Source: a bacterium
Lineage (GTDB): Bacteria; Patescibacteriota; Minisyncoccia; Phycocordibacterales; SBAW01
Length of the DNA: 64,000 nt
Reading direction: 5' to 3'
Assembly: GCA_021839985.1 (NCBI GenBank)
Contig: JAKBZO010000001.1
Coordinates: forward strand, 676 to 64,675
Both the position numbers and the translations under genes were made by a program. A model generated the notes under the pieces. The model ran no database searches and had not been told where the DNA came from. It saw only the letters and a list, made by a program, of their open reading frames with translations. Numbering within the stretch: position 1 is the first letter of the stretch; each line of letters begins with the position of its first letter. Positions 285 through 35,383 of this stretch are shown piece by piece.

Positions 285-2246
285 TCATTGCCCCACGATC
301 TCCATGCCGCGAGAAAAACCGGGGTCGCTCGAGAGAAGCGTCGTGAGCGGGTCAGCGCTCGCGGTCACTTGCGCTTGCGCGAAACGATCTTGGCCCTGGA
401 ACTGGATCGCACCCGTGAGTGCCGGTGCGGAGCCGACCTGCGAGAGCGAGGGCGTTAGCGATACTTGGAATGACGCCTGTCGTGCAGGAGTGCTGTAGCC
501 GACGCCCGCCTCCACGTCGCCAAGGGTCCAGGTGACCGTGCGCGTGCTGTCGTCGTATGACACTTGTTCGCCACCTGCCGTTCCGGCGCCGATGAACGAA
601 ACGTACGGCGGCAGCACCGTGCTCATGGTCGCGCCGCCGAGCGTGTTGGATGAATTCTTGACGGAGAAAACGATCGCATAGGTGGTGGTCTGCCCTACCC
701 GAGGAGGCAGCGAGCCGCTTTCGCTGAACGGACCCGTGAAATGAAGCGCTTGCGCCGAAGCGGACACCGCCGAGGCAAGCTCGATCTTGGTGCTTGCGAC
801 CGTCGTGATGTCCTCCGGCACGCCGGTGCCCTGACGTGTTCCGTGCACGGTAAGGTTGAGCGTCGCTTCAGGATTGGCGAGCGGCGCGCTGCCGGGCGGC
901 AGCGTCGCGAGGGAGAATTGGAATGAACCGCCAGCACCCGGCGCGACCGACGCGAGCTGTGAATTCTGGTCGCCGCTCCAGGTGATCTGCTGTTTATTGG
1001 AATCATAGAAACCGTTGATCGCGCGCACCGAGGATCCGTCGATCGCAGAGCCGGAAAGCGACAGCGTGAAGGTCACGTTCGATACGGTCTCCGTCAGGTT
1101 GTTCTGCCATGCGATGTTGCCCGAGATCGTCCCGCCGAGCGGCTCCGCGATCGTCGCGCCCGTATTGCCGTCCAGCGAGATCGTCGCGCCGATGAACGGC
1201 TTGCGCACGGTGACCGTCTGCGGGGTCGAGAGAAGCGGGACCGCGAGCGATGTTTCGGTCGGATCGCTTTCGGTACCGGCGAGGAAATGGAAAACGCGCT
1301 CGTCGCCATCTTCGCCGGTGAGCACGCCGGAGATATGAATGGTCTGGCTGCCGCCCGGGTTGAGCGTACCCAAATGCCAGAGCGTATTTCCCGGTGCCGC
1401 CGCCGGCGACACCGAATTCACCGCGAAGCCAAATGGATACTGCACTTCGACCGCCACATTCTGAAGCGGCGAGGTGGCGTTGGATGACACCTCCACGTCC
1501 AGCGAGAACGGCTGACCCGAGATCGCTTCCGTGGGCGATGAAATGGACACGGAGATCGGCGAGGAACCGATCGTGAACATGGTATCGACCTGTTTGACGA
1601 AGACCGAATTGGAGCCGGCGAGTTGGTATTCGAGCGTGACCGATACTTTTTCTTGCGAGCCGCTCGCGCCGAAGAACAGCGCCGAGGATGTCTGTTTGAT
1701 CTGCTGCCCTGGGGCTATCGTGCCAAGCGAGATGCGCTCATTGGGCAGCGCCACCGTGGGATCGTTCTGCGAGCGGGTACCGTCCGGATACGTGACGACC
1801 AGATCGGCCGCAAGAAGGGACGTGTTGTTGCGATTTTGAATGATGTACTGAAGCGTCGCGCCCTTTCCGCTGTCGATAAGCGAAGGCGCAACGATCTGAA
1901 CATCGATGTTCTGCGGAGAGATAGTGTTGAGTCCGCCCCACAGCGCCCACCCCGCAACAGCGGCCGCGATGACGAAGAATATGAATGAGCCCCACAGGAA
2001 GTACCATGCTGCGGTGTGTTTTGATGTGCGTTTTTCCATAAGCGTAAGCGGCGCGACCGGCTTTTCTAGCGCTCCCTCTTCTTTCATGCCATCCCACGAG
2101 CGAGGCGCTTCTTTGCGCGATGAAGAAAGCGGCGAGCGCGCGGTCGGTTCGACCGTGGGCGCCTGCGTGCGCGAATATAATTTGCTTTTGAGCCTTTCGA
2201 CTGGCGGTTCCCGATCGGGCATAGCACTATCATACCGCACGAACAC
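285..2246 (-). CDS. Membrane-anchored surface protein with a short cytoplasmic N-terminus, one TM helix and a long Ser/Thr/Gly-rich extracellular region of repeated beta (Ig-like/DUF11-like) modules; hypothetical
   Basis: 653-aa ORF. The TM segment is AAWYFLWGSFIFFVIAAAVAGWALWGG, followed by about 550 aa of repetitive low-complexity beta-rich sequence. There is no catalytic motif. Confidence 0.5.
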   Translation of the reverse strand: MFVRYDSAMPDREPPVERLKSKLYSRTQAPTVEPTARSPLSSSRKEAPRSWDGMKEEGALEKPVAPLTLMEKRTSKHTAAWYFLWGSFIFFVIAAAVAGWALWGGLNTISPQNIDVQIVAPSLIDSGKGATLQYIIQNRNNTSLLAADLVVTYPDGTRSQNDPTVALPNERISLGTIAPGQQIKQTSSALFFGASGSQEKVSVTLEYQLAGSNSVFVKQVDTMFTIGSSPISVSISSPTEAISGQPFSLDVEVSSNATSPLQNVAVEVQYPFGFAVNSVSPAAAPGNTLWHLGTLNPGGSQTIHISGVLTGEDGDERVFHFLAGTESDPTETSLAVPLLSTPQTVTVRKPFIGATISLDGNTGATIAEPLGGTISGNIAWQNNLTETVSNVTFTLSLSGSAIDGSSVRAINGFYDSNKQQITWSGDQNSQLASVAPGAGGSFQFSLATLPPGSAPLANPEATLNLTVHGTRQGTGVPEDITTVASTKIELASAVSASAQALHFTGPFSESGSLPPRVGQTTTYAIVFSVKNSSNTLGGATMSTVLPPYVSFIGAGTAGGEQVSYDDSTRTVTWTLGDVEAGVGYSTPARQASFQVSLTPSLSQVGSAPALTGAIQFQGQDRFAQAQVTASADPLTTLLSSDPGFSRGMEIVGQ

Positions 2247-2933: not shown

Positions 2934-5900
2934 TGGGTGAGGATGAATCGAACGGGCATATTGAGTGATGGATGGATGGAGAGGTCTGCGGCGCGCATGA
3001 TCTCAAGCGCGCCAAGACCGGTCTGTGCGATGAGGTCATGCTTGTGCGACTCGAAGAACGCTTCCCATTCTTCGTCCACATCGACGCGCAGTGTCGGCCG
3101 GTCATTCACTAAGAGGCCTTCCTTTTTGCGCAGATCTTGGATCATCCGCGCGACGTCGCGCACCAGACCTTCTTCGCGCAGCTCATCCGTGATCGCGATG
3201 TCGAGCCACACGTCCTCTTCCATGTCAGTGTCGGTCTCGATGACCTTCACGTTCACTTCATCGGCGATGATGGCGCGCAGCACTTGATCATCCGGCAGTT
3301 CGCGCACTTTAAGAAGCGCGAGCGGCTGGCGCACCTTTATGCCGGAGGCGTCGCGGCGCTCAAGCGCGCGCGATGCGACGGTACGAATGATCGCCATGTC
3401 CGCGAGGATCTTTTCATCGACCGCGATATTCTCCGGCCAGTTCTCCAAGTGGACGCTCTCCTTTTCTCCACCCGCGCCCCGGTACACGCTCTCTGCAATG
3501 AACGGCATGAGCGGCGCCACGAGTTTTGCGAGCGCGAGCAAGACCTCGCGCTGTGTGGCAAGAGCAAATTGTTTGTCAGTAGCGTCCGCGCCCGTTCGCA
3601 CGCGATCGCGTGAGCGGCGCACATACCAGGTCGAATAATCTTCGATGAACGGGCGTAGTGCTCGCACGGAGCGCGGCATGTCGTAGGACTCCATCGCGTC
3701 GGTCATCTCGCGCACGAGCTCTCCCAAGCGCGAACGGACCCAATGATCAAGCGGATGCGGACTGTTCTCGCTTTCGGTCGCTCCGTCGTATTCCTCTTTA
3801 TAAAGCTCGAAGAATTTGTATGAGTTCCATAAAATGCCGATGACGCGGTTGTGCACCTCGCGCACGTCTTCATCGCGAAACGCGAAGTCCTCCGCCTGCA
3901 TCACCACGCTCCCCATCATATAGAGGCGCAGCGCGTCGGCGCCGTACTTATCGAGCAGCGCGAGCGGATCAGTGTAGTTGCCCTTGCTCTTGCTCATCTT
4001 GGAGCCGTCGGCGGCAAGCACGTTGCCGGTCACAACCGCGGCGCGGAACGACAGGCGATCAAAGAGCGCGACCGCCATCGCATGCATATAGTAAAACCAT
4101 GCGCGCGTCTGCCCGACATACTCGGCCACAAAATCGCCCGGCGCGCGCTTCTCGAATGCTTCGGCGTTCTCGAACGGATAGTGATATTCGGCGAACGGCA
4201 TGACGCCCGACTCCGCCCAACAGTCGATGACTTCCGGTATGCGGGTGTACTCTGCGCCATCGTCTCCGAGGAGCGTGATCGAATCGATATAGGGACGATG
4301 CAGGTCGAGATCGAATTTCGCGTTGAGCGGCAGCGGCTTGAACGGAAGTTCCATCACCTCGCCCGGCGCTGCCGCGAGATTCACTTCGCTCAGGAGATCG
4401 TCGCCGCGCGTGCCATCGAGCACTTCAACGAGCGACTTGAAGCCGACCGCGTGCGACACCATGACCACCGTCTTGTCCGCATACGTCTCCTCGTAGCCGT
4501 AGATCGCTTTGCCGAAACGGATCTTCGCTTCTTCAAAACTTTCGCCGTGATCGGGATGTACGGTGTACCAGTCGGGTCGTGCCAGCGCCTGTATCCACTC
4601 CGATTTCGGTCGGCCGTCATATTCGCCGAAGTTGAATTCTGCGAGCCGCTCATCGACGACGATCGAAGATCCATCAAGACCAAGCTCGCGCGCCATGATC
4701 GTGGCGGTCTCGCGCGCGCGGCGCACCGGCGAGGTCAGAAGCACCAGCGATTTCTCAGGCGTCTGTGCCAAGCTCGCGCGGATGGTGTGCGCCGCGCGCG
4801 CGGCCTGCTCCCGGCCCTTCTGCGTCAGCGGGTAGACGCTCTCTGGGTCGGCGGTGTAAATGCCCTTGCTCATATATTCCGACTCGCCGTGGCGCACGAT
4901 GAAGTATCGATTGCCCGCGGTCTTCGCGCGCTGCTTGAGCTCCTCCAAAGAGCCGACCACCATGTACCGGCCATCTTGTGCTTTCCAGATCGGCAGGGGC
5001 GACGCCCAGAAACGATTGCGCGAAATGGTCCAGTCGGGCGCATTGTCGACGATGTGTTTGAAACGACCATGCTTAAGATGCTCCGGCACCCACGTTATCT
5101 TTTCATTCTCTTCAAGAAGACGCGTCTTGATCTTCTGAATATTGATGAACCACGACGAGACCGCGTTGTAGACGAGCGCCGTCGAACAACGATAGCAGTG
5201 CGGATACGAGTGCGTGTGCTCCGCTTTCGCAAAAAGCAGACCGCGCTTCTCAAGATCTTCGATGATACGCTTGCCGCCCTTTTTGTAATACATGCCGACG
5301 ATGAACTCCGGCGCCATCGAGTTGTAGGAGCCGCTCGCGTCGAGCAGCTGGATCATCGGCAATCCTTCGCGCGCGCCGAGCGCGAAGTCGTCTTCGCCGT
5401 ACATGGGGGCAATGTGCACGATGCCGGTGCCGTCTTCGGTCGTGACGAAGTCGCCGGCATACACGCGATGCGCCACGCCCGACTTCTCCTCGCCTGCGAA
5501 TTCGTAGAGCGGTTCATATTCGAGACCGACCAAGTCTTTGCCCGATCGTTCCCAATCGAGCACATAGAGTATCTGCTTTTGTGCGAAAAAGTTATTCGTG
5601 TCCTGCGAAAGAATATAAAGTTCAGGGCTGTCTGGTTTTTTAGCGAGTTGGTATTTGATATTTTCACCCACCGCCAGCGCCATGTTTCCCGGCAGCGTCC
5701 ACGGCGTGGTAGTCCACGCGAGCAAATACACATCACCCGAAAGTCCGAGAGCGTTCGGGTCTTTGACCTTGAACTTCACCGTCACCGCCGTATCCGTCAC
5801 ATCCTTATAGGTGTTATCCATCGCGATCTCCGCTTTTGCCAGCGGCGTCTCGCAGTGCGGGCAGTACATGAGCACCTTGCGGCCTTCGTAGAGGAGCTCC

Positions 5901-6418: not shown

Positions 6419-6446
6419 ACATAAGAATATATAGGTATATCACCCA

Positions 6447-6480
6447 AATTAAAAGGCGGTACGTTTCTCAACGTTCCGCC
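6447..6480 (-). terminator. Intrinsic terminator hairpin with U-tract, about 30 nt upstream of the ileS start; the end of a putative regulatory leader
   Basis: The minus strand reads ggcggaacgttgagaaacgtaccgccttttaattt. It lies about 400 nt downstream of the argS stop and directly before the ileS RBS, which suggests an attenuator or T-box-like leader. Confidence 0.5.
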
Positions 6481-6710
6481 TTCTCGATCAGATCGGTCAT
6501 TTTTCGACCTTGAACCTACCAGACATGCCTGCCGTACGAGGTTCCTAAGAGTTCTGACACGGGGTGCCGAATCCCTACCCTTGTGCCGGATGGTATGTCC
6601 GGCCGCTACTTCGCTTTCTGAAGAACATGGCGTCTCCCTGGCCTGATGATCGTGGCGATCACTGAAACTACTGGTAAAAGTAGAGCATGATTGCTGCGAA
6701 AAGTCAAGCT
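6481..6710 (-). promoter_or_regulatory. Putative ileS leader RNA, a possible T-box-like attenuator, with a candidate promoter (TTGACT near 6702-6707)
   Basis: A sigma70-like -35 TTGACT with a weak -10 would give a ~250-nt leader containing AUC(A) triplets, several stems and a terminal terminator. No clean T-box consensus was found. Confidence 0.25.
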
Positions 6711-15811: not shown

Positions 15812-16312
15812 ATGATCCACATCATCGCCGCCATCGGAAAGAACCGCGAACTCGGCAAAGATAATGCGCTGCTGTGGCAGATCCCGGAGGACCTCCGGCA
15901 CTTCAAAGAGCTCACGCTTGGACATCCGGTCATCATGGGGCGCAAGACATTCGATTCGATCGTTGCTGCACTCGGAGGACCCTTGCCCAGGCGCACCAGT
16001 ATTGTTGTCACGCACACCCACAGAGGGGAACCCTCTGGGACAGAGGGTTCCCCTCTGTGGGTGTGCTCGTTTGAAGACGCGTTAGCGCGAGCACAAAAAA
16101 TTGACCAGGATGTCTTTGTGATCGGTGGGGCGCAGATATACGAACAAGCGCTGCCACACGCTGACGTGCTTCACCTCACACTCATCGATGACTCGCGCGG
16201 TGCTGATTCATTCTTCCCGCCGTATGATCAGCTTTTCAAAGAAGTGGGCGTAAGCGAGTGGCATGAGCATGGCGACACTCGTTACCGCTTCGCGGAATAT
16301 AAAAGGCTTTAG
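15812..16312 (+). CDS. folA: Dihydrofolate reductase
   Basis: IIAAIGKNRELGKDNALLWQIPEDLRHFKELTLGHPVIMGRKTFDSI...VIGGAQIYEQALP matches DHFR throughout. A loop carries an in-frame palindromic insertion. Confidence 0.85.
   Translation: MIHIIAAIGKNRELGKDNALLWQIPEDLRHFKELTLGHPVIMGRKTFDSIVAALGGPLPRRTSIVVTHTHRGEPSGTEGSPLWVCSFEDALARAQKIDQDVFVIGGAQIYEQALPHADVLHLTLIDDSRGADSFFPPYDQLFKEVGVSEWHEHGDTRYRFAEYKRL
16017..16065. repeat. Palindromic MITE-like element cacacccacagaggggaaccctctg-gga-cagagggttcccctctgtgggtgtg inserted in frame in the folA loop (encodes HRGEPSGTEGSPLWV)
   Basis: 25-nt inverted arms with a 3-5-nt centre. The related palindrome ccccagagggttcccctctgggg recurs at 23936-23958. Confidence 0.6.
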
Positions 16313-16346
16313 GAACTAGGCTCTAGGCATTAGGCTCCAGGAACAC

Positions 16347-16396
16347 AAAAAGCGTGAGCTCCGCCAGTTGGCGGAGCTCACGCTTTTTGTGTTTTG
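16347..16396. terminator. Bidirectional intrinsic terminator between the convergent genes folA and rplK
   Basis: aaaaagcgtgagctccgcc-agtt-ggcggagctcacgctttttgtgtttt is flanked by A- and T-runs and by short taggc-type repeats. Confidence 0.6.
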
Positions 16397-16431
16397 AATT
16401 TTCCTAGTGCCTAAGGCCTATCGCCTAGTGC

Positions 16432-16854
16432 CTACTTCACATCCACCCCCATCGAACGCGCGGTGCCGGCGATGACCTTCATCGCTGCTTCCACGTCGTT
16501 GGCATTGAGATCCGGCATCTTCGCCTCAGCAATCTCGCGCAATTGCGTCGAGGAGAGCACGCCGACCTTCGACACGTTCGGCTTCTTCGAGCCGCTGTCC
16601 TTGCCGATCTTCTTGAGGATCATCTTCGATGCCGGCGGCGTCTTGAGGACGAAATCGTACGAACGATCTTCGTACACCGTGATGTTCACTGGAATGATGT
16701 CGCCCATCTTGTCGGCGGTCGCCGCGTTGAATTTCGTGACGAAATCACCGATGTTGATACCGGCCTGACCGAGCGCCGGACCCAGTGGAGGCGCAGGGGT
16801 AGCCTTACCCGCCGGCGCCATGACCTTTATTTTTTTGATGACTTTCTTCGCCAT
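16432..16854 (-). CDS. rplK: 50S ribosomal protein L11
   Basis: [43 protein letters not shown]... is canonical L11. Confidence 0.9.
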
Positions 16855-22253: not shown

Positions 22254-22437
22254 TCTCGTGGGTTTTTGCTTTGCTCTGCGAGCTCACAAAAACCTCACTC
22301 GCTCGACCCCCACCCGCCGCCTCCGCTCATTCGCTTCGCTCATGAACGGGCTTCGCGGCGGCTTGGTTCGATTCCCTGTAGTCGGCCCAGGAATATATCC
22401 TCGGCGCTCCGCACCTACGTCTTATTCTGGGCGACTA

Positions 22438-22512
22438 CAGGGAATCGAACCCTGATTGCGAGTTCCACAAACTCGAGTGTTAACCGTTACACCATAGTCG
22501 CCATACTACACA
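22438..22512 (-). tRNA. tRNA-His (anticodon GTG) with G-1
   Basis: The reverse complement folds as a cloverleaf with the anticodon loop tt-GTG-ga and the T-loop ggttcgattcc. The 3' end is ...tagtcgccca. Confidence 0.8.
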
Positions 22513-22518
22513 GGAAGC

Positions 22519-22555
22519 CGGAAGCCTCGTGCTTCCGGCTTCCTGTGTCTTGTGC
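22519..22555. terminator. Hairpin between tRNA-Leu and tRNA-His
   Basis: acaggaagccggaagcctcgtgcttccggcttcctgt is a perfect 15-bp stem. Confidence 0.45.
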
Positions 22556-22563
22556 CCAGGAGA

Positions 22564-22647
22564 GGATTCGAACCTCCATAGGATTGCTCCCGCTACCACC
22601 TCAAGGTAGTGCGTCTAGCCAATTTCGCCACCTGGGCAACTGTTGTT
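22564..22647 (-). tRNA. tRNA-Leu (anticodon GAG), long variable arm
   Basis: The reverse complement reads gcccaggtggcgaaattggctagacgcactacc-ttGAGgt-ggtagcgggagcaatcctatggaggttcgaatcctctcctgggca. Confidence 0.8.
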
Positions 22648-23367
22648 CAAACCTGCCATCCTCAAGACACGGTCGACCTTCATTCGCTTACGTGACAGGC
22701 AGATAGCACTATTACCATAATATATTGAGGGCAATAACTCAAGGGATTCATGCTTCGCGTATTTCAACTGAAAGACCGTCCTATTTGCATTTTGTGTAAT
22801 ATGGCCATTAATGCCTAGTCGGCGCTTGATCTCCGTTCTTAGCCAGGAGATATGCTTTTTACTTGCGGAGGCAAAAACTGTATAGAACATAAAACTAGCT
22901 TCCCATCGCGAATCCATGTATGAGTAAAAACTGCCATCCCCGTCGAATGACCCTCGCAAGAAATCAAAGAAATATCTGTTGGGAATCTTTACTGCGCCAA
23001 TGGTCTTCGACTTTGCACCAGATATGCCGATTGAACATAAAAAATTATGGAACAAGGTATCGCTGAACTGAACGTGTCCGCACAGGTCGCCATTCCCATT
23101 GCTTTTGGTGCTTAACTTTACTTGTATATTCAGGCAGCGGCAAAAATTATCAAGCTGTTCTTCATCTTTTGAAGTCAATGTTACATGCCGGCCATCGACA
23201 GACACATAACCGTCTGTTGCCAACAACCCAAGAGCGTAGGCAAAATTAGCAGACCACTTGATCTCCACTTTTCCTTTCGGTTTCGGACCACGCTTCCCTA
23301 TAAACAAATAGTAGCACGGCTCAAGGTAATAGCGTCTACCAATTTGTGGTATTAAAAAGACCGGCAT
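22615..23367 (-). CDS. LAGLIDADG homing endonuclease (double-motif, free-standing) in an AT-rich islet
   Basis: Two LAGLIDADG motifs are present: FAYALGLLATDGYV and FLRGSFDGDGSF. The ORF's last ~33 nt overlap the 5' part of tRNA-Leu. Low GC. Confidence 0.75.
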   Translation of the reverse strand: MPVFLIPQIGRRYYLEPCYYLFIGKRGPKPKGKVEIKWSANFAYALGLLATDGYVSVDGRHVTLTSKDEEQLDNFCRCLNIQVKLSTKSNGNGDLCGHVQFSDTLFHNFLCSIGISGAKSKTIGAVKIPNRYFFDFLRGSFDGDGSFYSYMDSRWEASFMFYTVFASASKKHISWLRTEIKRRLGINGHITQNANRTVFQLKYAKHESLELLPSIYYGNSAICLSRKRMKVDRVLRMAGLNNSCPGGEIG

Positions 23368-23400: not shown

Positions 23401-23850
23401 TTATTCCTGCGCTGCCGTTTCTGCGACCGCCTCCGGTGCGGATACTTCCGCGACCTCTGCCGCTTCTTCGCTTGCGGTTGCCGAAGGAGAGAAAGCGCGT
23501 GCGCGGCGCATCTGGCGCTTCACGTCGCGCGCTGCTTTGGTGCGGATGAAATAGAGCTTCGCGCGGCGAACACGAGCGCGCTTGAGGATCTCGACCGAGT
23601 CGATGACCGGCGAGTAGAGCGGGAAGACCTTCTCGACGCCAACGCCGCTTGCCACCTTGCGCACCGTGAAGGTAGCGCCGGCTTCAGTGCCATGCTTGAC
23701 CGCGAGCACCAAACCTTCGAACGCCTGCTTGCGCGTCTTGCCTTTTTCGACGATCTTCTGCCACACGCGGACCGTATCGCCAGCGGCAATGCCGAGCGCC
23801 TGGCGCTCTTTCATGTCGACCGGTGAGATCTTTATTGCACTTTTTTGCAT
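23401..23850 (-). CDS. rplS: 50S ribosomal protein L19 with an Ala/Glu-rich C-terminal tail
   Basis: MQKSAIKISPVDMKERQALGIAAGDTVRVWQKIVEKGKTRKQAFEGLVLAVKHG... The start is at the internal Met (23850), and the ORF table's upstream extension is not coding. Confidence 0.85.
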   Translation of the reverse strand: MQKSAIKISPVDMKERQALGIAAGDTVRVWQKIVEKGKTRKQAFEGLVLAVKHGTEAGATFTVRKVASGVGVEKVFPLYSPVIDSVEILKRARVRRAKLYFIRTKAARDVKRQMRRARAFSPSATASEEAAEVAEVSAPEAVAETAAQE

Positions 23851-23935
23851 GATCGTGAGTATAGCACGGAAGCCTCGATTTGCAAATTGTTGCTTACGGG
23901 TGTCCGTCCAACCACCGTTCCCTAACGGCCAACTC

Positions 23936-23958
23936 ACCCCAGAGGGTTCCCCTCTGGG
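23936..23958. repeat. Palindrome ccccagagggttcccctctgggg, related to the folA insertion
   Basis: It shares the core agagggttcccctctg with 16017-16065. It sits just upstream of rplS. Confidence 0.55.
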
Positions 23959-24054
23959 GGCTACTATAACAAAAGGGTCCTTTTCCACTCCGCAAAAATT
24001 CTTGCAAAGTTTCAAAGGACCCAAGGTTCAAAATCGAACCAAAGTGTTGAAGGA

Positions 24055-24672
24055 TCAGCGAGAAACCACCTGGTCGTCGGCATCCCACCTGTCCGGGAGC
24101 GTCACCGAGTCGGCTTCGACGTACCAGCCGCTGTCGTCGGCGCCCCAGTACGCGTGCACGGCCCAGACGGTTCCCTTTGCATCGGCGATGTAGAAGATGA
24201 ACCACTTGGAGTGGTAGGCGGTCTTCAAGAATTCGAAGACATGCGCGAAGTACACGCGGGCTCTTTTCACCTTCGGGAAGTCCTTGTCGCCGAGCGCCAC
24301 GAGGATGTTCTCGTCCGACGATGAGTTAAGCAGTTTGCGCTGCTTCACTGTCATGGCGGGGACATTCTCTTCGATGAGGTCGCCGAAGTTTGCCATAAGG
24401 TTTTCGCCGAGGTTCCAGATCGGCAGCTCGCCGTTCACGTCCACCTTGAGCTTGTCGCGAGCAACGAAGCGTTTGACGGACGAGAATCTGATCGGCTCGC
24501 CTACTTCTTCGAGGAGACCCGCGAGGATCTTCTTGCTCGCCACCGACTCGACTTTCAATGTTTTCTCCCCACGCAAAATCGCGCGGGCTCCTTCTGCGCC
24601 GCCAACCATCTTGATGATGGCGTTAGTTTCGCCGCCCGTAAGGTCGGCCATTGCGAAACGATCATGAGACAT
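24055..24672 (-). CDS. Hypothetical protein
   Basis: A 205-aa ORF with no recognised motifs. Confidence 0.45.
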   Translation of the reverse strand: MSHDRFAMADLTGGETNAIIKMVGGAEGARAILRGEKTLKVESVASKKILAGLLEEVGEPIRFSSVKRFVARDKLKVDVNGELPIWNLGENLMANFGDLIEENVPAMTVKQRKLLNSSSDENILVALGDKDFPKVKRARVYFAHVFEFLKTAYHSKWFIFYIADAKGTVWAVHAYWGADDSGWYVEADSVTLPDRWDADDQVVSR

Positions 24673-27637: not shown

Positions 27638-27726
27638 AGCGCTCGCTCGTCGCCGTCGCTCCTCGCTCCGCTCGGCCCTGCTCGCGCGACCCAGTCTGCT
27701 GACTGGGTGCCCGCGCTCGCTTTCGA
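27638..27726. repeat. Copy 1 of a ~90-nt structured repeat (CGCTC-rich arm plus a hairpin with covarying stem)
   Basis: aagcgctcgctcgtcgccgtcgctcctcgctccgctcggccctgctcgcgcgaccc-agtctgctgactgg-gtgcccgcgctcgctttcg. The second copy at 32739-32837 differs mainly by compensatory changes in the inner stem. Confidence 0.6.
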
Positions 27727-27800
27727 GCCCCTCAGGGTGCACAAAATTAAGCTCCGATACGCTCACGCGTATCGGAGCTTAATTTTGTGCACCCTGAGGG
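27724..27800. repeat. Long palindrome (~37-bp arms) made of the tRNA-Val 3' end plus a trailer and their inverted copy
   Basis: gagcccctcagggtgcacaaaattaagctccgatacg-ctcacg-cgtatcggagcttaattttgtgcaccctgaggggctc. Confidence 0.6.
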
Positions 27801-27860
27801 GCTCGAACCCCCGACCTTCTCAGTGTAAATGAGTTGCTCTACCAACTGAGCTAAGGGTGC
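27788..27860 (-). tRNA. tRNA-Val (anticodon TAC)
   Basis: The reverse complement reads gcacccttagctcagttggtagagcaactca-ttTACac-tgagaaggtcgggggttcgagcccctcagggtgca. Confidence 0.8.
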
Positions 27861-35298: not shown

Positions 35299-35383
35299 AA
35301 AACGAACGCAGTATCACACAAAGAAAGGGCGCCGCTTCGCGGCGCCCTTTCTTTGTGTTCTGCTTTGTGTTCTGTATAAAAAA

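Follow-up and report, generated by a model that had tools for sequence, protein, structure and literature searches.

A perfect 55-nt palindrome lies in frame within folA, the dihydrofolate reductase (DHFR) gene of an ultra-small patescibacterium (genome GCA_021839985.1), in the 64,000-nt stretch of contig JAKBZO010000001.1 (positions 676 to 64,675) that we call the window. We interpret this palindrome as a REPIN, i.e., two inverted hairpins of the repetitive extragenic palindromic (REP) type, from a family with a cognate Y1/HUH transposase that resembles the tyrosine transposases associated with REPs (RAYTs), and we hold this interpretation at a probability of roughly 70%. We favor it because the hairpin core is dispersed, because a transposase gene is flanked by inverted copies of that core, and because the modeled fold of the transposase best matches the Escherichia coli RAYT structure 4ER8.

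The host open reading frame (ORF; 15812–16312, + strand) encodes 166 amino acids in an intact frame and matches Pfam DHFR_1 over residues 1–165 (E = 1.4e-44). Its assignment to folA also draws on the gene order CYTH–folA–rplK–nusG, which is common to the window and orthologous loci, and on an AlphaFold2 (AF2) model with a normal DHFR fold and a mean predicted local distance difference test score (pLDDT) of 93; 23 columns are invariant among 45 homologues. A repeat search of the window places the palindrome at 16012–16066, with two 26-nt arms (16012–16037, GCACACCCACAGAGGGGAACCCTCTG; 16041–16066, CAGAGGGTTCCCCTCTGTGGGTGTGC) that are 100% complementary across a central GGA (16038–16040). The first-pass annotation, which had described a near-perfect 25-nt inverted repeat, was right about its presence and slightly short on its extent and perfection. 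Each arm is itself a small hairpin with a 17-nt core: CAGAGGG-GAA-CCCTCTG in REP unit A (16021–16037) and CAGAGGG-TTC-CCCTCTG in REP unit B (16041–16057). A 9-bp outer stem, in which GCACACCCA (16012–16020) pairs with TGGGTGTGC (16058–16066), encloses both.

In translation the palindrome reads T67-HTHRGEPSGTEGSPLWVC85 (codons 67–85). The left outer stem supplies the third base of T67, H68, T69 and the first two bases of H70, unit A reads ..H-R-G-E-P-S-G, unit B reads T-E-G-S-P-L, and the right outer stem covers codons W83, V84 and C85. This right outer arm encodes strand βD (residues 82–84, LWV, in the AF2 model), and residues 71–80 form the model's sole low-confidence block (pLDDT 61). Chance is excluded as the origin of the palindrome. 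Specifically, the 15-mer AGAGGGTTCCCCTCT matches three times in the window at ≤2 mismatches against 0.04 expected (100 shuffles), and the folding energy of the 55-nt region is −59.8 kcal/mol for RNA (z = −9.0) and −35.2 kcal/mol for DNA (z = −10.7), with none of 200 shuffles as good in either case. Nor is it an assembly artefact, because the gene sequence is identical in independent assemblies (GCA_027346695.1, ERZ27237541, ERZ27237587); the same palindrome is also present in orthologues from two other lineages.

The core is a dispersed repeat in related metagenome-assembled genomes (MAGs), as a genome search suggested by the first-pass annotation now bears out. An exact scan for the 17-mer in one genome per GTDB species (596 Gb) recovered 12 copies on multiple contigs of MAG WY3.bin123 (JAKAHS01), eight in Vogelbacteria JACRKE01, two in Vogelbacteria PCYI01 and one in a Paceibacterota MAG, together with 22 singletons scattered over unrelated taxa. 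With ~69 chance matches expected by arithmetic, the singletons are noise, unlike the clusters in the candidate phyla radiation (CPR). Genuine copies in the window and related loci are all exact (17/17) in the core, which is unchanged across genomes of 44% to 57% GC. A fuzzy search of the window and these loci found no copies with one or two mismatches, and allowing up to three stem substitutions added no genuine copies; matches with three mismatches were no more numerous than shuffling predicts (4.5 per 64 kb). The 17-mer had no match in IMG/VR, and a viral origin was rejected on that ground.

Around the core, the flanks are CCC-core-GGG or the folA-specific outer stem in the window, mostly cTA-core-TAg/a in WY3.bin123, and a 39–47-nt palindrome, TTATCCACATA-core-TATGTGGATAA, in Vogelbacteria. 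Inverted pairs are separated by a 3-nt spacer in the folA copy and by a 6-nt spacer in the dnaG copy described below, and more doublets occur in loci L045 and L046. A scan of metagenomes for doublets returned only two contigs, both low in GC and both with a loop variant (TAA/TTA) of the same stem, and no more doublets of the folA type. In two WY3.bin123 loci (L022 at ~6440–6510 and L037 at ~110–180), ~40 nt of flank beyond the core are identical (gccctaCORE-taaacgaaaatcagtttgattggatggcgg), and by this sequence comparison the hairpin there appears to be part of a longer duplicated segment. In the Vogelbacteria-type copies (L002, L004, L008, L012, L018, L019, L030, L050), the hairpin sits between inverted perfect DnaA-box consensus sequences (TTATCCACA), the 3' tail being more constant than its 5' partner. 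The idea of a DnaA box arose from the TTATCCACA/TGTGGATAA tails of these copies; some TnpA_REP-like proteins bear Bac_DnaA_C-type domains (PMC6006769), but the C terminus of the L006 protein described below matches no Pfam family.

Within the window, a third copy lies at 23937–23959 (core 23940–23956). It is a full hairpin with a 10-bp stem (CCCCAGAGGGTTCCCCTCTGGGG) in the TTC form, CCC-CAGAGGGTTCCCCTCTG-GGG, and is intergenic, 87 nt upstream of the ATG of rplS (23401–23850, − strand; Pfam Ribosomal_L19, 1.1e-31) and 96 nt downstream of the ORF 24055–24672 (− strand). The recurrence upstream of rplS that had been reported is thus real, one base away from the position given for it (23936–23958). 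The stop-free frame of rplS (23401–24024, − strand) reaches 58 codons upstream of the ATG and runs through this copy, which would there read PRGEPSG, the same frame as unit A in folA; we treated this stretch as non-coding because its residues are not protein-like and because a promoter-like site (23886–23858, − strand) stands between hairpin and gene.

The suggestion that the element might act as a bidirectional hairpin or terminator is not supported. Neither 16012–16066 nor 23937–23959 received a terminator-like call and both lack a T-tract, while the same scan does call the folA/rplK terminator at 16344–16391. The folA/rplK intergenic region (16305–16440) contains a perfect palindrome of its own (16342–16393, 25-nt arms) that scores as a terminator on the + strand, is probably bidirectional given its A-rich and T-rich flanks, and is bracketed by repeated ctaggc/ctagtgcc-like motifs. 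Further perfect terminator-like palindromes occur at 35316–35358 and 22508–22548; this genome favors unusually perfect long hairpins.

The link to a transposase came from a metagenome doublet. Locus L046 carries in its gene at 3–686, a RAYT-like ORF with a Pfam Y1_Tnp match, a doublet of its own REP family that is read through in frame (..SRAEGNPLQNRRGLPSV..) and separates the HUH motif from the N-terminal motif YHILNRG. Another doublet, here of two direct units (2279–2318), stands just upstream of a UvrA-like ORF. When the RAYT-like ORF of L046 was used as a tblastn query against all loci analysed here, it led to L006, a 3.7-kb Vogelbacteria contig (E = 2e-40), where a gene at 851–1540 lies between the contig's two exact cores, 802–818 (+) and 1591–1607 (−), inverted and with their GGATAA tails pointing toward the gene. 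The encoded protein (P0121) has the HUH motif NHFHLLL and the tyrosine motif YIHLNP, with H80, H82 and Y140 invariant in 40 homologues. It matches Pfam Y1_Tnp (PF01797) at 32.3 bits against a gathering threshold of 23, and its single NCBIfam match is REP_Tyr_transpos (NF047646; E = 4.4e-8). In a Foldseek comparison of its AF2 model (pLDDT 88) with the PDB, chain A of 4ER8, the E. coli RAYT with a REP hairpin, ranked best (E = 1.3e-5, TM 0.45/0.59), ahead by a modest margin of the TnpA proteins of IS608 and ISDra2 (E of 4e-4 or weaker). A core that is dispersed and that flanks a transposase gene supports the earlier claim of a mobile-type palindromic repeat tolerated in frame in a DHFR loop.

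P0121 belongs to a family of >7,900 members in the protein collection, whose top matches are all from Patescibacteria and are named only "transposase." Its relatives have their own hairpins. The closest (L050, 75% identity) carries the same element with loop TTA, as a hairpin with a 22-bp stem 11 nt upstream; in the 61%-identical L059 the gene lies between inverted doublets of a different hairpin, ACACAGG-GTAGT-CCTGTGT; L060/L061 (58%) have another hairpin upstream and an inverted partial copy of it downstream; and L054 (58%) has yet another hairpin repeat in three copies. No clear flanking hairpin was seen at L051 (52%) or L052/L053 (60%), and no tnpB-like neighbor was found among the called genes of L051–L054, L059 and L060, which are short contigs. 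To judge from these sequences, the flanks follow what would be the REPtron pattern of RAYTs, in which each RAYT is associated with one cognate REP type (PMC6006769).

ORF and Pfam analysis of every copy identified five in-frame coding copies, in folA, dnaG, ychF, tatD and the transposase-like gene of L046; the non-coding copies, intergenic or just outside gene starts, are the majority. In the DnaG primase of WY3.bin123 a doublet is read as HRGEPSVNTEGSPLY, between GR and KYVNSPET of the DNAG_N domain. The YchF GTPase of PCYI01 contains a single unit read as TYPHTEGSPLYVDK, and the TatD hydrolase of JACRKE01 a single unit giving the same peptide. All five use the frame that yields EG[SN]PL and RGEPS. 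Compared with a 46%-identical YchF in L017, the YchF of L030 is 15 aa longer at this place, which, as the placement of the gap is ambiguous, is consistent with a 13-codon insertion and is not decisive. The window holds no orthologues of dnaG, ychF or tatD, and the dnaG data were taken from other contigs. In one of the dnaG genes compared below (P0242; L055, ~5250–5390), the Toprim motifs VKVP and KDPADL are moreover separated by an additional in-frame insert, ~40 aa long (PIVGTPGQ...RVGLPC); this insert has no REP core and is absent from WY3.bin123 and from all other aligned orthologues.

By orthologue comparison, the element replaced native sequence in folA with no net addition. The closest DHFRs, P0002 (85% identity) and P0003 (from WY3.bin123, 84%), have the palindrome at the same codons, while P0004 (L043, GCA_036392075.1), at 72% identity and with the same CYTH–folA–rplK–nusG synteny, lacks it and has a loop 1 aa shorter; three orthologues thus carry an insert that is lineage-specific, the outcome that the alignment check proposed in the first-pass annotation was designed to reveal. 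Paceibacteria DHFRs P0006 and P0007 are free of the motif and match the window's loop in length. At the nucleotide level, homology of the window's gene with P0004 ends at codon 68 and restarts at codon 86; the 55 nt therefore replaced the native βC–βD loop and strand βD. That the loop is about five residues longer than in E. coli, as first noted, is accurate for that comparison and misleading beyond it, and a simple insertion of about five residues does not describe an element that spans 18 codons, strand βD included, in place of a native segment of near-equal size. In P0004 (folA at 2637–3134 of L043), a 7-nt tandem repeat, (CAAGAAT)x4, encodes QESRIKNQES in the βC–βD loop; judged from its repeat structure, this loop looks like the product of independent, slippage-type remodeling, so the βC–βD loop would be a hot spot of turnover in both lineages. 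In dnaG, eight native residues in the outgroup (the MAG of P0004) correspond to 18 in the genes that bear the doublet, so that an element of 44 nt has lengthened the gene by 30 nt. Both the folA and the dnaG elements are found in the window's lineage and in WY3.bin123, and the outgroup GCA_036392075.1 has neither, with synteny kept.

Among the genes that carry the element, the DNA or RNA structure is conserved and the peptide is not. Outside the palindrome, the folA genes of the window and L025 differ at 60 of 446 positions (13.5%), and at 0 of the 34 core positions (P = 0.007); unit A is identical in three folA orthologues, and the 17-mer of unit B is the one that flanks the RAYT-like gene of L006. 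The six differences within the palindrome fall at 16014, 16064, 16066 and the three spacer bases. Position 16014 (A in the window, G in L042 and L025) pairs and covaries with 16064 (T in the window, C in L042 and L025), a compensatory change that turns R68/R85 into H68/C85. The spacer is GGA in the window, its exact reverse complement TCC in L025 (peptide GT>VP) and TTC in L042, and the difference at 16066 extends the stem from the 25 bp of L042 and L025 to 26 bp in the window. Likewise, between the dnaG of WY3.bin123 and P0242 (which probably represents the window's species, as its samples also contain the window's DHFR), both 3-nt loops are flipped to their reverse complements (GAA<->TTC), with the replacements E>F and S>N, and stems, feet and spacer are identical in a gene 87% identical overall. 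The joint probability of the unchanged stem positions at the background rate is ~8e-5. Because stems stay unchanged, one pair covaries and loop flips alter amino acids, these sequences indicate a constraint that acts on the nucleic acid and not on the peptide. Loop inversion with intact stems and coupled changes in the arms are signatures of hairpin-mediated template switching or inter-arm recombination; the flips and coupled changes also fit the ongoing action of an enzyme that recognizes the hairpin.

By analogy with characterized REP/RAYT systems, the RAYT-like enzyme would recognize the hairpin on single-stranded DNA, cut and rejoin it, and so spread copies in trans, as RAYTs have been proposed to do for REPs (PMC6006769, PMC5581495). 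The ancestor that the window's species shares with WY3.bin123 and the organism of L042 may have acquired one doublet in the surface loop between βC and βD of folA, where the doublet could have survived since it was in frame and encoded a flexible loop rich in Gly, Pro and Ser followed by the hydrophobic LWV that now forms strand βD. More generally, in-frame copies that yield a flexible, hydrophilic loop would be the ones to survive selection. The palindrome may be kept perfect by hairpin-templated correction or inversion between the arms, by the constraint of a recognizing protein, or by both, with the encoded peptide left free to change. We infer that the RAYT-like enzyme mobilizes these copies and that such an enzyme exists or existed in the window's lineage; the palindrome is presumably self-maintaining, by whichever of these mechanisms, and presumably without benefit for DHFR.

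Several observations weigh against this interpretation. The canonical 5' GT[AG]G tag is absent: copies read C[CT]AC-AGAGGG..CCCTCT-GT[AG]G, which places GT[AG]G at the 3' foot alone, where it overlaps with the stem; the copy upstream of rplS has CTCTGGGG and no GT[AG]G. By definition, the foot of a REP hairpin carries a 5' tetranucleotide, GT[AG]G or CGTC (PMC6006769 and PMC3733652), so the copies here would form a non-canonical REP class. For a REP family, moreover, the number of copies seen is small (tens at most). P0121 scores 33.1 bits against the NCBIfam RAYT equivalog cutoff of 80. Sequence searches from P0121 do not reach 4ER8 (phmmer returned nothing relevant, and an hmmsearch of the transposase profile against solved structures returned only the TnpA of ISDra2, E = 0.07, around the HUH motif), and because they failed, the link to RAYTs needed the comparison of folds. 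A RAYT-like gene was found neither in the window (best tblastn E = 0.23, with the L046 protein as query), nor in ~60 kb of WY3.bin123 loci, nor in a further ~30 kb of contigs that probably belong to the window's species, and lookups of P0130 and P0143 for a RAYT of the window's lineage led to other organisms; the cognate enzyme is therefore seen only in more distant relatives (JACRKE01, L050). Finally, the element replaces native codons in folA and dnaG, which simple insertion does not explain, and we found no transposition intermediate and no pair of empty and filled sites with clean boundaries.

Of the other explanations, the one we take most seriously, while considering it unlikely, is that the hairpin is a cis element selected by the host, either an mRNA structure that tunes folA, dnaG and rplS (as an RNase III site, a translational pause or a stabilizer) or the binding site of a host protein. 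A 26-bp RNA stem is long enough in principle for RNase III, and the folA hairpin offers 26 continuous bp at −59.8 kcal/mol; stems that are perfectly kept, with one covarying pair, as the peptide changes would be expected of such an element, as would a core exactly conserved between genomes of 44% and 57% GC. RNA-level roles have also been proposed for many REPs (PMC3733652). However, the core turns up in unrelated settings (in intergenic DNA, upstream or downstream of genes and in both orientations, and within four different coding genes) and flanks a transposase gene as an inverted pair, outgroup folA and dnaG orthologues work without it, and hairpin-templated DNA events in which selection plays no part would produce the loop flips and the covariation just as well. 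A cis role is moreover compatible with the REPIN interpretation, as domesticated REPs can gain such roles. Much less probable is a local origin in folA by template switching or snap-back replication, with the likeness elsewhere due to convergence or gene conversion. The native loop was replaced rather than lengthened, the outer 8–9 bp of the stem are folA-specific and include DHFR codons (R68, W83–V84), the loop flips attest to events of the template-switch type here, and the outgroup loop is also a slippage product, (CAAGAAT)x4; yet local events cannot give rise to one and the same 17-nt core at >25 loci of four or more genomes, including both sides of a transposase gene. Local processes plausibly explain only the extension of the outer stem and its maintenance, not the origin of the core.

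We give very little credence to the two further alternatives. One holds that the repeat was selected as a peptide module, HRGEPS..TEGSPL, serving as an interaction or modification motif in several housekeeping proteins, and the same frame (TEGSPL[Y/W]; HRGEPS..TEGSPL in doublets) is indeed used in DHFR, DnaG, YchF and TatD. Most copies are intergenic, however, the loop flips and the covarying pair alter the peptide and leave the DNA stems perfect, no other loop of the DHFR model is of low confidence, and the use of one frame throughout is more readily explained by selection against the others (QRVPLC, RGFPS, and a stop codon in the Vogelbacteria tail). The other is the label "MITE-like" of the first-pass annotation, i.e., a miniature inverted-repeat transposable element (MITE) derived by deletion from an insertion sequence (IS) and moved by a DDE transposase. 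The element is short, palindromic, repeated and non-coding on its own, as a MITE would be, but at 17–55 nt it falls well below the 70–300 bp MITE range (PMC3733652). It has no IS terminal inverted repeats and no parent IS was found; no target-site duplications or border direct repeats are present at the folA, dnaG and intergenic copies; and the sole transposase found beside copies is a Y1/HUH enzyme in a REP–gene–REP arrangement. We accordingly describe the 55-nt folA element as a REP doublet instead.

Read as a REPIN, the folA palindrome is a clear new example of a kind of system that is already known. With the REP/REPIN–RAYT systems of E. coli, Pseudomonas and Stenotrophomonas it shares a dispersed short palindromic unit whose inverted pairs form a longer hairpin, in relatives a Y1/HUH gene between inverted copies (REPtron-like in L006, L059 and L060) with homologue-specific cognate hairpins, and the best structural match of P0121, the E. 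coli RAYT 4ER8. It differs in its CPR/Patescibacteria host. P0121 and 4ER8 are only ~14% identical, and P0121 has a C-terminal helical extension of ~80 aa (no Pfam match for its C-terminal 84 aa even at E ≤ 10). Canonical REPs have the 5' GT[AG]G tag and are longer, whereas doublets here measure 37–55 nt and cores are all exact; and canonical REPs are extragenic, whereas the folA copy is intragenic, most other copies of its family being intergenic.

The rearrangements within the folA and dnaG hairpins resemble the hairpin-associated minute inversions of chloroplast non-coding hairpins and quasi-palindrome template switching of the Ripley type, in which loops are reverse-complemented, stems remain unchanged and changes in the arms are coupled; here, by contrast, they occur in coding sequences of essential genes and change the protein. 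Rickettsia palindromic elements (RPEs), the classic analogue, are translated as surface segments compatible with protein function and are longer than the folA element (RPE-1 measures ~100–150 bp), to which they are unrelated in sequence; to our knowledge no mobilizing enzyme has been established for them, whereas a candidate enzyme is identified here in relatives. What they have in common with our element is that in-frame palindromic repeats occur in a reduced-genome bacterium (Ogata et al., 2000, as cited in PMC3733652). Intragenic REPs are a documented minority and, where in frame, are known from several phyla, mostly as dimers and often in replication or repair genes (PMC3733652). In Opitutus terrae, Thauera, Thioalkalivibrio and Rickettsia conorii (Di Nocera et al., 2013) they are frame-preserving monomers or dimers, as in dnaG, tatD, ychF and folA here. 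REPs in frame inside RAYT genes have likewise been published (PMC6006769), and those in tnpA_REP genes of subclass 2.4 (Quentin et al., 2018) parallel the doublet in the RAYT-like gene of L046. The REP families and phyla differ from ours, and the codon replacement, covariation and loop flips seen here are not discussed in the portions of these two studies that we read. Within the one literature library that was searched, no paper links REP/RAYT to CPR or Patescibacteria.

Two other inverted repeats of the window lie at tRNA genes. The longest in the window (27722–27807) has 41-nt perfect arms and a 4-nt spacer, and its right arm overlaps the 3' end of the tRNA gene 27788–27860 (− strand), so its left arm repeats, inverted, that 3' end together with 21 nt of flank. 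This structure may be the remnant of an integration site or another hairpin-mediated duplication. At 22365–22451, the tRNA gene 22430–22501 has its 3' end duplicated by an inverted repeat of 23 nt (96% complementary). Nearby, the ORF 22615–23367 (− strand) has a LAGLIDADG_3 match (7.6e-10), a homing-endonuclease-type domain, and its 5' end overlaps the tRNA gene 22553–22637 by 23 nt.

Most work on REP/RAYT systems concerns Proteobacteria, and whether the host benefits from them is still a question. CPR genomes are very small and gene-dense, with little intergenic space, and in-frame copies in the essential genes folA and dnaG offer a natural setting in which to study the persistence of these elements; the orthologue series, with an outgroup that lacks the element and two lineages that carry it, allows what constrains DNA or RNA structure to be told apart from what constrains the protein. 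We think it doubtful, and somewhat less probable than the host-selected cis element, that CPR/Patescibacteria as a whole hold a large unrecognized RAYT-like clade whose REPINs sit routinely in essential genes and are actively maintained, with frequent loop inversions that switch surface-loop peptides or mRNA structure in proteins such as DHFR and primase. Transposases of the P0121 type are now annotated generically, and the abundance of the clade in CPR deserves a survey. Perfect palindromes inside CPR genes, such as that of folA, should not be dismissed as assembly errors.

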